50,776 nucleotides of DNA from a virus (IMGVR_UViG_3300036785_000282:1-50776), one strand, 5' to 3'. Counted from the first letter of the stretch, positions 2,913 through 30,899 are shown. The notes: generated by a model from the letters alone, not told the origin. Numbers and translations: made by a program.

Positions 2913-5267
2913 TTATTTAGTTCCTGTAAACGGAATGACGTTGTTAGGTGCAATCATAAAACCATCCTTTAATCGTAAGCCTTTCCATCCCTGCACCGTT
3001 GTAGCTACGCCATCCATACGTATGCTGCCCTTATCTGCTCTACCGCGCATAGTGGAGCGCATAGCCCGTGTGAAGGTGGTACGTGTCATAGCTGAACCGC
3101 CTTCACTAACGCGCCACATTTTATAAGCGTTATAAACTGCTTCAGTGGTTTCTTTATAGCCTTCACCAAGTTCACAACGTTCTAAAATAAAGCCCATCAA
3201 TGGTGCCTGCTGACTAATGATCTCTTCACGTTCAATACGACTTGCTTCTGGTTCAGTAAATCTACCATTAGTTCTTAAACGGGCTAGACCTTCTATTGCC
3301 CAATTGCATATCCCCGGTAACTCAGTAAGTAAACGCCCGGTTAGTGTCGGATCTTCCGATCCTAAATAAGTACGGTTGAAAGGAAGAATCAATAGACGGT
3401 TTGCCATAGCGCCGGAATCATCAGCAAATGACGGTACATTGTTTGCTGCCATGGTTATGCGACCCGGTAAACAACCATTCCACGCGCCCTTATATTTGCG
3501 GTTAAATGAAATATTATCGTTACCAGTAATGGCTTTGAATGACTCCATTACCTTATTTCTGTCGTTACCCGTGATACTGTGAGCATCACCCACAAACAAT
3601 ACAGTTTTATCGCTGATGTTTTCTAAAATCGCATCATTAGACAAACCACCTAAAGAAATACCGGCATAAGTCTGATCACCTACCAGTTCTTTCAATATGC
3701 GCCCAATGGTACCTTTACCGGAACGAGGCGCACCAATAAACAACATCGCTTTTTGATATTCATAGCTGGTTACTAACATATAACCTAACCATTCCTGCAA
3801 CAGTCCAATGCGTTCGGCATCACCTTCCAATGTACCGGCTAAGAACGATAACCACTGTGGCGCTTTAACAGCGGGGTCGTAATTATATGGTAACATGCCA
3901 GTAGTGAAATAAGCCGCGTTATGCGGTTCTAACACGCCTGTATGAACGTCTAAAATACCATTTTGACAAACCACCAAGTGTGATGTATCACGGCCCGGCC
4001 ATGTTCCTAATACGATAGCTGAACGAGTAAATAAATAACTCAATACTTTGAATGTACCGTTAATAACATCGGCTTTTGGTTCACTGGCTAACATCGCCAT
4101 AGTGAGTTGGTGTTTTAATTCATCTTCTGTAAATCGTTCCCAAACCTTACCGTTAAAGCGATATGGCTGTTGTTGAACAAATACTAACGTATTGTTGGGG
4201 TAATAGTTTTGTACAAATGTTGCCGCGTTAACAGTATGGTTTTGCGCATAATTACCACCGGGCGACACACGGCTATAGGCTGGTTCGATATTTGGCACAA
4301 CCAAAGTAGGCGCAGGCTGAACCATGTTCATTAACTCAGTGGTTAATTTCGGCGGTTGTTTATAAACAACGTCGCAGCGATCGATAGCACTTAAAATGGT
4401 GTCTTGACGATATTTAGCACGTTCTGACCATTTACCACGGACTAACGCCGATTTATTAAATAAGTGTTCTATACGTTCGCAGTTGCAACCGGTCCAAAAT
4501 GCCAGATGTGAACAAAGTGCCATATCGGCAGAACTAAAGTTAAATTCCTTTCCCTGATCGCTCGGATATGTAGCTGATAAAGCTTCAATGTTGCGATTCC
4601 ATAAATCCTTAAAACTGGCTTTATTATTAAATGTTGTTCCAGCTGATTTACTTTCAAGAGCACGCCGAATTAGTTCCTCATCATCGGTAGGGCCATCCCA
4701 ATCTGGTCTTGGTGCCGTTGTCCAGTTATCTGGATTCTTATCACTGGCTACACGACCATAATCAGATATCATTGATAAAACACCGGCTGTGCAATCAACA
4801 TCCGGGTCACCTTGGCCCTGCATCGTCATGGCAACGAAACGCCACCGATAATACATTTCAAGCCCTAGTTTCTGATCATTCAATGAGCTAAATGATTCCG
4901 GCACTTCTGATGTACTACAAATAATATGTAGGCCGGTGCCAGATTGAGAAACCTCAATATAAGCACCGGGGAAGCGATTACAAATACCTAACGCAAACGC
5001 AGACCATGTATTATCAGGCTGCAAACAGTTGTCTATATCGATAAAGAAATACGGGTCATACTCCGATATCATATATCCGATACCGGTCATTGCTGTTACA
5101 CGTGCCACATTCAACGCAGTGTGATAATCAGACCAATGAGCAGGATTTGTTGAATCGGCACCATAACCGGTGTTTGGGCTATACGGAACTTTAGTAGGCT
5201 TTGGACGGCCTTCTACATGTTCCAACTTCCACATGATCCAGTTTTTACGCTGGTGAAGTCCGTTCAT
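2913..5267 (-). CDS. DNA primase-helicase (Prim-Pol N-terminus plus P4/D5-type SF3 helicase)
   Basis: FIDID and EVSQSGTGLH primase motifs; Walker A GAPRSGKGT; D5-like C-terminus. Confidence 0.92.
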   Translation of the reverse strand: MNGLHQRKNWIMWKLEHVEGRPKPTKVPYSPNTGYGADSTNPAHWSDYHTALNVARVTAMTGIGYMISEYDPYFFIDIDNCLQPDNTWSAFALGICNRFPGAYIEVSQSGTGLHIICSTSEVPESFSSLNDQKLGLEMYYRWRFVAMTMQGQGDPDVDCTAGVLSMISDYGRVASDKNPDNWTTAPRPDWDGPTDDEELIRRALESKSAGTTFNNKASFKDLWNRNIEALSATYPSDQGKEFNFSSADMALCSHLAFWTGCNCERIEHLFNKSALVRGKWSERAKYRQDTILSAIDRCDVVYKQPPKLTTELMNMVQPAPTLVVPNIEPAYSRVSPGGNYAQNHTVNAATFVQNYYPNNTLVFVQQQPYRFNGKVWERFTEDELKHQLTMAMLASEPKADVINGTFKVLSYLFTRSAIVLGTWPGRDTSHLVVCQNGILDVHTGVLEPHNAAYFTTGMLPYNYDPAVKAPQWLSFLAGTLEGDAERIGLLQEWLGYMLVTSYEYQKAMLFIGAPRSGKGTIGRILKELVGDQTYAGISLGGLSNDAILENISDKTVLFVGDAHSITGNDRNKVMESFKAITGNDNISFNRKYKGAWNGCLPGRITMAANNVPSFADDSGAMANRLLILPFNRTYLGSEDPTLTGRLLTELPGICNWAIEGLARLRTNGRFTEPEASRIEREEIISQQAPLMGFILERCELGEGYKETTEAVYNAYKMWRVSEGGSAMTRTTFTRAMRSTMRGRADKGSIRMDGVATTVQGWKGLRLKDGFMIAPNNVIPFTGTK

Positions 5268-29562: not shown

Positions 29563-29583
29563 AAAAAACCCGCCGAAGCGGGT
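29563..29583 (-). terminator. intrinsic terminator closing the RNA cluster
   Basis: ACCCGC-TTCG-GCGGGT-TTTTT. Confidence 0.85.
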
Positions 29584-29719
29584 ATAATGACTGGGACTTC
29601 ATCATAGGATAATTTACGAGGGCTGCCAGAAACCTCGATTACCGCCTATGCGGGGTGATGCTACTTAACCTTCACATTCACCAATTCGCGCGGTTTTTAA
29701 GCCGGGGTTCCGAATCAAT
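29563..29719 (-). ncRNA. putative ~155-nt stand-alone small RNA
   Basis: Own promoter and terminator; no ORF; hairpins CCGC-ATAG-GCGG and CGAGG..CCTCG. Confidence 0.55.
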
Positions 29720-29725
29720 ACGGTA

Positions 29726-29755
29726 ATAATATTCTATTTCGGTCTATCTTGTCAA
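29726..29755 (-). promoter_or_regulatory. sigma70 promoter right after the tRNA-Leu CCA end
   Basis: TTGACA-18-TATTAT. Confidence 0.65.
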
Positions 29756-29756
29756 C

Positions 29757-29842
29757 TGGTATCAGATGTGGGACTTGAACCCACACAGCCATAAGCCGAG
29801 GGATTTTAAATCCCTTGTGTCTACCTATTCCACCAATCTGAT
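29757..29842 (-). tRNA. tRNA-Leu(TAA)
   Basis: Acceptor ATCAGAT/ATCTGAT-A-CCA; anticodon arm AGGGA-TTTAAAA-TCCCT; long variable arm; GTTCAAGT T-loop. Confidence 0.95.
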
Positions 29843-29846
29843 AAAA

Positions 29847-29923
29847 TGGTGCGTCTTACTGGACTTGAACCAGTGACCAAGCGGTTATGAGCCGCGTGCT
29901 CTAACCAACTGAGCTAAAGACAC
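29847..29923 (-). tRNA. tRNA with CAT anticodon, most likely tRNA-Ile2 (lysidine) rather than Met
   Basis: Cloverleaf with encoded CCA; GCGG-CTCATAA-CCGC; body resembles enterobacterial ileX-type tRNA. Confidence 0.9.
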
Positions 29924-30420
29924 AAAATGAAACACCATCGTAAATTTTCCTGAAACGCCCCCGTTCCAATTGGTTAAATAAAGAATGATGTTTCGTTTTG
30001 TGCACTACAATGCTAACTGCTTTTAACTCTCACCCTAACAATCGTAATGCTTTGTACCACCGATCGGGGTCATTGTACAATATATTAAAAACAGTTAGCG
30101 TTGTATGCCGGTTACGTTTATCCGGCGTCATATGACCGATTTAGCCCAAAGGTAGCACCTTGGTAGACTGTGGTCGCAACAGGTTATTGTTGCCTTCCCC
30201 CTTTCGGGTGGCCCTTTTACCACAAGGGTATGAATCATTTCCCCGAGCCTTCACTTTCTCGGTAAGGTTCCCCGCGCTTAACTCCACTCGGGCCAGTTTG
30301 CGTTCTGGCTTGTGTGGCTACCCGACAAGATTCATTCACAATGATTAACGAGCCGGAAATGATTCATACCGTTGTGTACCGGTCTTTCCCGGCTGTCAGT
30401 TATGCAATCTTCCCATCGTA
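29921..30420 (-). ncRNA. structured non-coding RNA array (three long stems with enclosed segments and repeated small hairpins)
   Basis: Inverted repeats 29921-29938/29985-30002, 30006-30026/30085-30105 and 30227-30242/30355-30370. Confidence 0.7.
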
Positions 30421-30435
30421 GCCAGCGTGGGGAAG

Positions 30436-30479
30436 TGTCGCGACCTTTCGGTTTCTGCCTATAGCTTCATCAGGCGACA
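30436..30479 (-). ncRNA. type I hammerhead-like ribozyme
   Basis: TGTCGC-CTGATGA-AGCTATAGGCA-GAAA-CC-GAAA-GG-TC-GCGACA; full core with a GUC cleavage triplet. Confidence 0.75.
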
Positions 30480-30561
30480 TAAATAATGCTGGCCTACACC
30501 TATCTACTTTACATAACAACGATAGGAAACGCTCATTCGAGTAATATCAACTCACAAACAA

Positions 30562-30590
30562 AGAATACGTTAAGAAATATCGTAAGTCAA
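30562..30590 (-). promoter_or_regulatory. sigma70 promoter of the RNA cluster
   Basis: TTGACT-17-TATTCT. Confidence 0.7.
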
Positions 30591-30899
30591 ATTTTGTTTT
30601 TCACACCATTCGACCGCTGGTTTTTTACCTTTAGTTTCAGGCTTATGCATAGGCATACCGCCAACATACACGATAAAGTAACCGTCTTTGTCTTTCTCGA
30701 TCTTAGCCTGTGCTGCCGGTGGCGGTGGTGTCTCAGGTTCGACAACTACCGGTGCTTCACGAATAATATGATGTTGCAGAAATAAATCTAAGGTATGGCG
30801 CGGTAGTTCTGGCACAGGTGACCCATCTTGGCACAACTCACCTTCGATAACTTTTGTTTGACTCATTACGTAATTTTTAGAAGGATCGTAATGTTTCAT
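30570..30899 (-). CDS. hypothetical protein downstream of the capsid gene
   Basis: GAGG RBS; ORF track. Confidence 0.75.
   Translation of the reverse strand: MKHYDPSKNYVMSQTKVIEGELCQDGSPVPELPRHTLDLFLQHHIIREAPVVVEPETPPPPAAQAKIEKDKDGYFIVYVGGMPMHKPETKGKKPAVEWCEKQNLTYDIS

Follow-up and report, generated by a model that had tools for sequence, protein, structure and literature searches.

The virus record IMGVR_UViG_3300036785_000282 (1-50776) raises the question of whether a hammerhead-like motif on its minus strand, in which the base of stem II shows an A-A opposition, is a working ribozyme, and of what larger RNA it is a part. By the window we mean the whole stretch of DNA that was analyzed, i.e., all 50,776 nucleotides (nt) of this record. 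The answer that we favor, with a rough probability of two in three, is that the motif is a self-cleaving type I hammerhead at the center of a ~160-nt phage RNA, with simple 5'-end processing of a non-coding RNA (ncRNA)/tRNA transcript as its most likely function; this reading is drawn from comparative sequence analysis. A first-pass annotation of the window had picked out the motif, and beyond that annotation we found it to be the core of a ~160-nt double-pseudoknotted RNA, which recurs at 38 distinct phage loci, some of them in named phages of Klebsiella and Pectobacterium.

The motif occupies 30436..30479 on the minus strand and was identified by direct reading, a descriptor scan and RNAalifold. 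From 30479 to 30436 the strand reads UGUCGC-CUGAUGA-A-GCU-AUA-GGC-A-GAA-A-CC-GAAA-GG-U-C-GCGACA. Stem I comprises 6 base pairs (bp), formed by UGUCGC (30479-30474) with GCGACA (30441-30436), and is followed by CUGAUGA (30473-30467), stem II with its loop (A-GCU-AUA-GGC-A, 30466-30456), GAA (30455-30453) and stem III with its loop (A-CC-GAAA-GG-U, 30452-30443). A15.1 and U16.1 are at 30452 and 30443, C17 is at 30442 and the predicted cut falls between 30442 and 30441, whereas at the base of stem II A10.1 (30466) faces A11.1 (30456) rather than forming a canonical pair. The motif, the predicted cut site, the flanking GGCCAGC and GCUGGCU and the CUUCCC/GGGAAG hairpin all lie, by direct reading, where the first-pass annotation had placed them. 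The three-helix junction order, the invariant core (C3 U4 G5 A6 N7 G8 A9 and G12 A13 A14), the A15.1-U16.1 pair and an H17 (not G) at the scissile bond are those of a hammerhead; a Watson-Crick 10.1-11.1 pair is absent, and the Rfam gathering threshold is not reached.

We scanned both strands of the window with a loose descriptor (stem I of at least 4 bp, stem II of at least 3 with a 10.1/11.1 mismatch allowed, and stem III of at least 3 pairs including 15.1-16.1), for which this motif is the sole match. The same descriptor matched 27 times in 3000 first-order Markov windows, 4 of these with a stem I of at least 6, so that ~0.001-0.009 matches are expected per window; a chance match is thus improbable in this window, but as the rate is non-negligible across a scan of many windows, the motif alone is insufficient as a claim. 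That AT-rich intergenic DNA merely happens to resemble the hammerhead consensus would be in keeping with the random rate of ~0.009 per window under the loose descriptor, with the lack of an Rfam match and with a folding z-score near 0, yet this becomes vanishingly improbable given that 38 distinct phage loci have the same RNA and show compensatory changes. It is this conservation with compensatory changes in other phages that lifts the motif above chance.

A weak blastn match (E=2) led to the first of these relatives, in Klebsiella phage Magnus (L004), an unrelated phage of the Ackermannviridae, which reads CUACGC-CUGAUGA-A-GCU-GAU-AGC-A-GAA-A-CC-AUUU-GG-U-U-GCGUAG, followed by the hairpin UUCCCC..GGGGAA. 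Relative to the window, Magnus has other Watson-Crick pairs at 3 positions of stem I and keeps the A.A opposition; its 5' flank, CCGGAACA, can pair with UGUUCCGG from the loop of the following hairpin, and this flank/loop pair differs in sequence from that of the window. A scan of IMG/VR with the pattern CTGATGAAGC-N3-9-GCAGAAACC, which fixes CUGAUGA, A10.1, A11.1 and GAAACC, recovered 38 loci against ~5 expected by chance (our own estimate), and 36 of the 38 have the same extended RNA; the other two are L034, a fortuitous match, and L006, where a hammerhead occurs in different surroundings. The exact 32-nt core has 0 matches in IMG/VR, and a blastn search of named phages with one group A member found nothing. 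The named carriers comprise 13 Klebsiella phage records of the Magnus type, Klebsiella phages KlebP_265 (L145) and DP01, Pectobacterium phages Pappous (L144) and Taid, and Dickeya phage Setonix; one member of each named group was inspected directly. In the deposited records inspected, the RNA is either unannotated or overlain by small hypothetical open reading frames (ORFs), with a coding sequence placed over the module in Magnus and Pappous. When 185,579 species genomes were scanned with a pattern, 90 stretches were returned, with ~30 chance matches expected by our own estimate; in none of the 80 stretches listed did the covariance model detect the full module, its matches there being core-sized only, and one of the 80, L099, is a separate hammerhead with A.A.

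A covariance model (R1), built from 34 distinct members on nested helices only, places the whole RNA module, hammerhead plus peripheral domain, at 30383..30545 on the minus strand (124.9 bits, E 2e-30, the only match in the record). The window belonged to the R1 seed alignment, so its own score is high by construction; relatives outside the seed (L145, L146 and L147) score 100-115 bits. From 5' to 3', the module starts with an ..AAAGAGCR block and the hairpin Pa (30499..30526; CCUAUC at 30526-30521 with GAUAGG at 30504-30499), the loop of which holds the 5' strand of a helix that we term PK2 (GUUAUGU, 30511..30517, pairing with 30405-30399). These are followed by a conserved GUAGG / CAAG stretch, the 5' strand of a second such helix, PK1 (GGCCAGC, 30488..30494, pairing with 30426-30420), a short linker and the hammerhead. 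Immediately 3' of stem I comes the hairpin Pb (30409..30435; CUUCCC at 30435-30430 with GGGAAG at 30414-30409), which has in its loop the PK1 3' strand GCUGGCU (30426-30420) and a conserved CUACGAU. The 3' tail after Pb carries the PK2 3' strand (GCAUAAC, 30399..30405), as recognized from per-sequence complementary runs, covariation and RNAalifold. After many members there follows UGAC with a GAAAGA-loop hairpin, Pc, which in the window is UGAC-A plus GCCGG-GAAAGA-CCGGU (30378..30398). In the window and several members this continues with an ACUAAC/ACACAAC block and a long variable hairpin, and because of these recurrent 3' elements the unit often exceeds 160 nt.

Stem I, PK1 and PK2 nest within one another and together make up a single long rod with interruptions; what turns PK1 and PK2 into pseudoknots is solely that one strand of each is enclosed by Pa or Pb. 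Since these helices are nested, such a rod, made of the hammerhead stems together with PK1 and PK2, is what minimum free energy (MFE) folding of the 163-nt module yields. The double pseudoknot would thus prolong the open stem I and clamp the ribozyme via the loops of Pa and Pb. The first-pass annotation had noticed that GGCCAGC can pair with GCUGGCU, either as an extension of stem I or as a contact with the loop of the downstream hairpin; the pairing is real, and both alternatives describe one structure, namely PK1.

When the 34 members are realigned to R1, 84.0% of cells are paired, as against 68.1 +/- 0.9% in shuffled alignments (0/500 reach the observed value) and 38-46% with partners slid. 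Stem I is paired in 95.1% of cells and Pb in 85.0%, and changes on both sides affect 5/6 pairs of stem I and 6/6 of Pb. The three-way junction with its hammerhead core is conserved in the relatives. All 3 pairs of stem II are changed on both sides, almost solely owing to two canonical members. For Pa the values are 57.8% and 5/6 pairs, the model-fitted alignment being poor across subgroups; by eye and per sequence, the 6-bp hairpin is present in most members. As the R1 alignment is fitted to its own helices, controls from outside the model matter, namely PK2 and an unfitted alignment. PK2 is paired in 80.7% of cells, with 7/7 pairs changed on both sides, in an alignment whose model had no PK2 information, and RNAalifold run on a plain MAFFT alignment predicted stems I, II and III, Pb and PK2 unaided. 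A complementary run of 6-13 nt between the linker and the Pb loop, corresponding to PK1, occurs in all 34 members (median 8, versus 5 between different members), with 24 distinct versions of the 5' strand among them; in column register PK1 is only 62.8% paired because one subgroup is shifted by one column. The equivalent run for PK2 has a median of 7 versus 5 between different members and comes in 29 versions. Loop II is often GNRA or A-rich, and stem I after its 6 bp meets the junction of PK1 and Pb; no covarying contact with loop II was found.

A permuted version of the module is found in Pectobacterium phage Pappous (2464-2626), where the same four peripheral helices are present and the part with Pa and the PK1 5' strand has moved to the 3' side. 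The order there is a small hairpin, the hammerhead, Pb, the PK2 3' strand, a connecting hairpin, Pa and the PK1 5' strand. PK2 is formed between GAACCCA in the Pa loop and an upstream UGGGUUC, and PK1 between CCCGCC and GGCGGG in the Pb loop, whereas the unpaired sequences match those of relatives with the standard order (e.g., L018). In the deposited record a 38-amino-acid hypothetical protein is annotated over part of the module, and tRNA-Met begins 10 nt 3' of it. The same four helices in another strand order point to one defined fold. Stem III of Pappous is AUAC/GUGU instead of ACC/GGU, the only stem III covariation seen. A k-turn or C/D-box reading of CUGAUGA..GA was rejected on account of this covariation and because the strand needed ahead of the 3-nt bulge is non-complementary.

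The opposed adenines with which stem II opens, as reported in the first-pass annotation, are not an error but a trait of the family. With a pattern leaving 10.1 and 11.1 free (CTGATGA-N8-18-GAAACCGAAAGGTC), we obtained 24 loci, 16 belonging to the family and 8 being other hammerheads. In the family loci these positions are A.A in 14 and G-C in 2 (L044 and L050), whereas they are G-C in 8/8 non-family hammerheads of the same scan; further family mismatches are U.U in L146 and C.A in L147 and KlebP_265. As far as these sequences indicate, a non-Watson-Crick 10.1-11.1 is the normal state of the family and is coupled to the peripheral domain. According to Perreault et al. (PMC3088659), 10.1-11.1 is the most conserved hammerhead pair after 15.1-16.1; the same source describes a natural U10.1-U11.1 variant and cites earlier work in which U.U was the mispair that allowed the most activity. 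In the literature available to us we found neither a natural hammerhead with A10.1.A11.1 nor an assay of the A.A form. Outside the family, the same A.A opposition was observed in L099 (994-1040, minus strand), a contig of a Saprospiraceae metagenome-assembled genome in which stem I has 8 bp, and in the IMG/VR contig L006 (3016-3181, minus strand), so the variant is not confined to the clamped family. With the Rfam model Hammerhead_HH9 (RF02275; gathering threshold 52), the core of L044, a canonical member, is aligned at 24.7 bits (E 1.3e-4), and the window gives no match; the L044 alignment links the family to the hammerhead clan and accounts for the failure of Rfam to report the mismatched window.

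Such a mismatch invites the alternative that the RNA is a structured, non-cleaving element (e.g., a protein-binding or nuclease-resistant leader), in which the hammerhead-like junction is architectural and the lost G10.1-C11.1 pair marks a dead derivative. The conservation of the core bears directly on this. A core-independent pattern made of peripheral letters only (GTGTAGGYCRG..CTACGATGGG) recovered 8 loci, 2 of them new, and CUGAUGA, GAAA, U16.1 and an H17 that is C or U are present in all 8. Conservation of the core in related phages, a point on which the first-pass annotation had let its reading depend, is therefore seen even where the core was not required. U16.1 occurs in all 34 members, and at H17 29 of them have C, 5 have U and none has G or A, although neither position was fixed by the first pattern; the core is also kept in Magnus, Pappous and KlebP_265, which were found by blast. 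Thus, the residues needed only for catalysis (C3, G5, A6, G8, G12, A13 and A14) are retained, and H17 is never G, while the helices around them vary. A dead derivative would accommodate a mismatch at the most conserved stem pair as the family rule (14/16 loci, plus the C.A and U.U members), a large peripheral domain with conserved unpaired blocks and the silence of the Rfam hammerhead models on the window, and hammerhead-like RNAs with core changes were found inactive by Perreault et al. (PMC3088659). However, the same family includes canonical G-C members, and 10.1-11.1 closes a helix and is not catalytic, with the natural U.U variant on record in that work. On balance, we consider a dead derivative unlikely.

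The contig, with a CheckV completeness of 91%, is that of a siphophage, the major head protein of which is 65-68% identical to those of 9NA/Sasha-like phages of Salmonella, Klebsiella and Escherichia; an IMG/VR search with this protein recovered no relative. The hammerhead is part of an interval of ~1 kb that lacks credible ORFs, bounded by a small conserved gene (30899-30570) on one side and by the head-tail connector genes on the other. Upstream of it, at 30562..30590 on the minus strand, is a sigma-70-like putative promoter, TTGACT-17-TATTCT, with 9/12 consensus matches. The block around it (30610-30557) shows 87% identity (over 54 nt) to the corresponding genomic site of Klebsiella phage VLCpiS10a and 73% to that of Salmonella phage 9NA, and the sequence 3' of the block differs between the window and these two phages; the block overlaps the end of the upstream gene, so its conservation may be partly coding. 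A descriptor scan of the head-gene neighborhoods of 9NA, VLCpiS10a and Proteus phage 2207-N35 found no hammerhead. The best promoter-like site of the region is a separate one, TTGACA-18-TATTAT (11/12 matches; 29726-29755, minus strand), just past the 3' end of tRNA-Leu and ahead of the connector genes.

Downstream of the module, the minus strand from 30382 to 29924 has no ORF with a family match, and would remain as ncRNA on the 3' cleavage product. This 459-nt RNA has an MFE of -154.4 kcal/mol, versus -121.2 +/- 5.5 for shuffled sequences (z -6.03; 0/100 shuffles as stable), and has no match in Rfam at E<=10. It includes a 16-bp helix (about 30372-30355 with 30244-30226), and a similar long hairpin in other family members is closed by ACGCAUGAG..CUCAGCUGUGUUGG. 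Next come two tRNA genes identified with Rfam (29757..29923, minus strand), tRNA-Met (CAU; 29923-29847) and tRNA-Leu (UAA; 29842-29757), 460 nt downstream of the module, and a terminator-like hairpin with a U-tract (29568..29583, minus strand) would close the unit. Contigs from two other sequencing runs have the cassette swapped, with 158 letters between 30230 and 30556 in one and 194 letters between 30234 and 30560 in the other; the sides of these bridging contigs are 145 and 129 letters long and were aligned at 80% likeness, and the flanks match at ~90%. The cassette (window 30231-30559) is exchangeable between close relatives, and its start coincides with the predicted transcription start.

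The association with tRNA genes extends to other members of the family. Among the 38 distinct loci, 6 have same-strand tRNA genes within 110 nt of the module: it lies directly upstream of a tRNA in L145, L144 and L027 and directly downstream of one in L011, fills the gap between tRNA-Asn and tRNA-Gly in L147 and is inside a tRNA array in L041. In 4 more loci (the window, L009, L013 and L016) a tRNA follows 460-1004 nt downstream.

Taken together with the structure, this setting suggests how the RNA would operate. We infer that transcription starts here and that the transcript cleaves itself. A start from the promoter-like sequence at 30590-30562 would fall ~10 nt ahead of the module, and the first ~160 nt of the transcript would fold into the clamped hammerhead at its 5' end. 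Hammerhead cleavage leaves 2',3'-cyclic phosphate and 5'-OH ends. Cut after C17 (30442), the RNA would release a ~114-nt 5' piece ending in a 2',3'-cyclic phosphate, and the 3' product, with a 5'-OH, would start with Pb and continue through the PK2 strand and the 459-nt folded RNA to tRNA-Met/tRNA-Leu. The peripheral domain presumably supplies the tertiary stabilization that other hammerheads derive from loop-loop contacts, and the biological role would be 5'-end processing or protection of phage ncRNA/tRNA precursors.

The two cleavage products may stay together, since stem I (6), PK1 (7) and PK2 (7) give ~20 pairs shared between them. These shared pairs also speak for a controlled or reversible hammerhead, in which the clamp and the mismatch would make cleavage conditional on a protein, a ligand, Mg2+ or co-transcriptional folding, or would hold the products for a cleavage/ligation equilibrium. 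The link between the mismatch and the peripheral domain (14/16 family versus 0/8 non-family loci) and the presence in the nested MFE fold of PK1 and PK2 but not of Pa and Pb are consistent with such control. Nevertheless, we found no other conserved pairing able to break up the core, the covariation of all four peripheral helices fits one final fold rather than two, and no ligand-like conserved pocket can be argued for from sequence alone; hence, control or reversibility appears rather unlikely to us. A related proposal, which seems doubtful, is that the clamp together with the unpaired 10.1-11.1 serves either as a non-covalent 5' cap, in which the ~100-nt ribozyme fragment would remain bound by ~20 pairs after cleavage and shield the 5'-OH of tRNA/ncRNA precursors from host nucleases, or as a regulated or reversible hammerhead with an activity dependent on the peripheral domain. 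Were this true, the cap or regulated form would be a new functional class of hammerheads, one confined to Enterobacterales phages and their uncultured relatives.

Several observations weigh against our preferred reading, i.e., a self-cleaving hammerhead that processes the 5' end of an ncRNA/tRNA transcript. The comparison with hammerhead covariance models proposed in the first-pass annotation went the other way: Rfam gave no hammerhead match in the whole window at the gathering threshold, in 29600-30700 at E<=10 or in 30400-30520 (121 nt) at E<=10, and the same scans returned only the two tRNAs and one spurious antisense match. Missing this threshold says little about type I forms with short stems, because canonical non-family hammerheads in the fetched loci fail gathering too. 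The folding stability is no better than that of shuffled sequences (z 0.06 for 131 nt and -0.10 for the 163-nt module). A.A may lower activity, as U.U is the only mismatch at this position cited as a tolerated natural variant in section 8 of PMC3088659. The invariance of the core in 32/34 members is weak evidence because the first pattern forced the core letters, and the unbiased core samples are small (8 loci and three blast-found phage groups, one member each); stem III is invariant across the 34 members, half of it being fixed by the search pattern. With 28 of the 38 loci having no tRNA in the fetched DNA, tRNA processing cannot be the whole story, and the cassette is dispensable, given its replacement by other sequence in contigs of two related phages. 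Among the sequencing runs searched, the stretch was found in one DNA run only, possibly its source, and the RNA run X19 covers only the tRNA parts.

Hammerheads are the best-studied small ribozymes, and their role in bacteria and phages is still largely unclear. The closest known systems are the pseudoknotted bacterial and phage type I hammerheads (PMC3088659; Rfam clan CL00010), with which the present family shares the core, the stem order, the open stem I and the short stems II and III, as well as an intergenic location in phages and base-paired peripheral elements in place of loop-loop contacts. Pseudoknot-stabilized hammerheads of phage intergenic regions are thus already known (PMC3088659). 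However, the pseudoknots described in that source join loop I or the stem I flank to loop II or the stem II tail, whereas here two helices of 6-13 bp prolong stem I. The family further departs from the forms described there in that its helices are locked in two hairpin loops, the domain spans ~160 nt, 10.1-11.1 is mismatched in most members and a circular permutation exists. With the natural U10.1-U11.1 hammerheads (PMC3088659) it shares a non-Watson-Crick base of stem II, L146 being exactly U.U, but in contrast to that rare variant, a mismatch is carried by most of its members, usually A.A and in some cases C.A. The theta ribozymes, minimal versions of the hepatitis delta virus type (Kienbeck et al. 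2024, PMC10879173), are likewise a small self-cleaving class recurrently placed beside phage tRNAs; they belong to another class and are linked in that report to tRNA-based recoding in gut phages, whereas the present RNAs are hammerheads, mostly upstream of or between tRNAs, with no recoding implied.

We did not find the family described in a literature search, with the proviso that the supplementary alignments of Perreault et al. 2011 and Weinberg et al. 2015 may list members. The ~160-nt double-pseudoknot domain, its permuted form, the coupled family-wide mismatch and the absence from Rfam 15 appear to be undescribed, and the family escapes Rfam-based annotation. A lineage-wide loss of the most conserved stem pair, coupled to a peripheral fold, amounts to a natural experiment on how a scaffold may compensate for a weakened core. 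The two circular permutations are strong evidence for a defined three-dimensional architecture and make the RNA a good target for structure determination. The setting is recurrent, being either the promoter-proximal leader of ncRNA/tRNA units or a slot inside tRNA arrays, and the occurrence of the family in cultivable Klebsiella and Pectobacterium phages makes its role directly testable.

Several further elements accompany the module. The RAGATH-1 model (RF03152; a conserved 5' hairpin plus hammerhead, gathering threshold 56.3) scores 13.3 bits on L044 and 19.3 bits on L045 and does not match the window; its hairpin is 5' of the hammerhead, whereas the UGAC/GAAAGAC hairpin of the window is 3' of the module. 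A Pc-type element, UGAC-A-GCCNGG-AAAGAC-NGGC, directly precedes unrelated canonical hammerheads in L045, L049, L051 and L053, and aligns weakly to the RAGATH-1 5' hairpin (19.3 bits, E 0.21) and to Zeta-pan (18.1 bits). Within the downstream RNA of the window, a second small module (30100-30144, minus strand) consists of GGUC-AUAU-GAC, followed by GCCGG-AUAAACGUAA-CCGGC and AUACAACG. Unannotated DNA right after the same promoter in the phages Sasha, Sergei, Solent, Bas82 and PDP46 is 87-89% identical to it, and no hammerhead was seen in Sasha, the only one of these inspected. In Magnus this second module lies ~20 nt 3' of the hammerhead module, and a variant of it (GCCGGACGCGUAACCGGCACACAA) is directly upstream of the hammerhead of Pappous. 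Other structured RNAs occur in some of the fetched loci: Magnus has an STnc100 match (2768-2982, 52.9 bits) ~1.2 kb downstream of its module, in a region of many annotated hypothetical proteins of 30-60 amino acids, and L017 has an Rfam isrJ match (3283-3359, 58.4 bits) ~260 nt upstream of the module. Finally, in L047 (5724-6566, minus strand) a canonical hammerhead (6566-6528) stands 382 nt upstream of a full-length GOLLD RNA (189.5 bits) in a large phage tRNA array.

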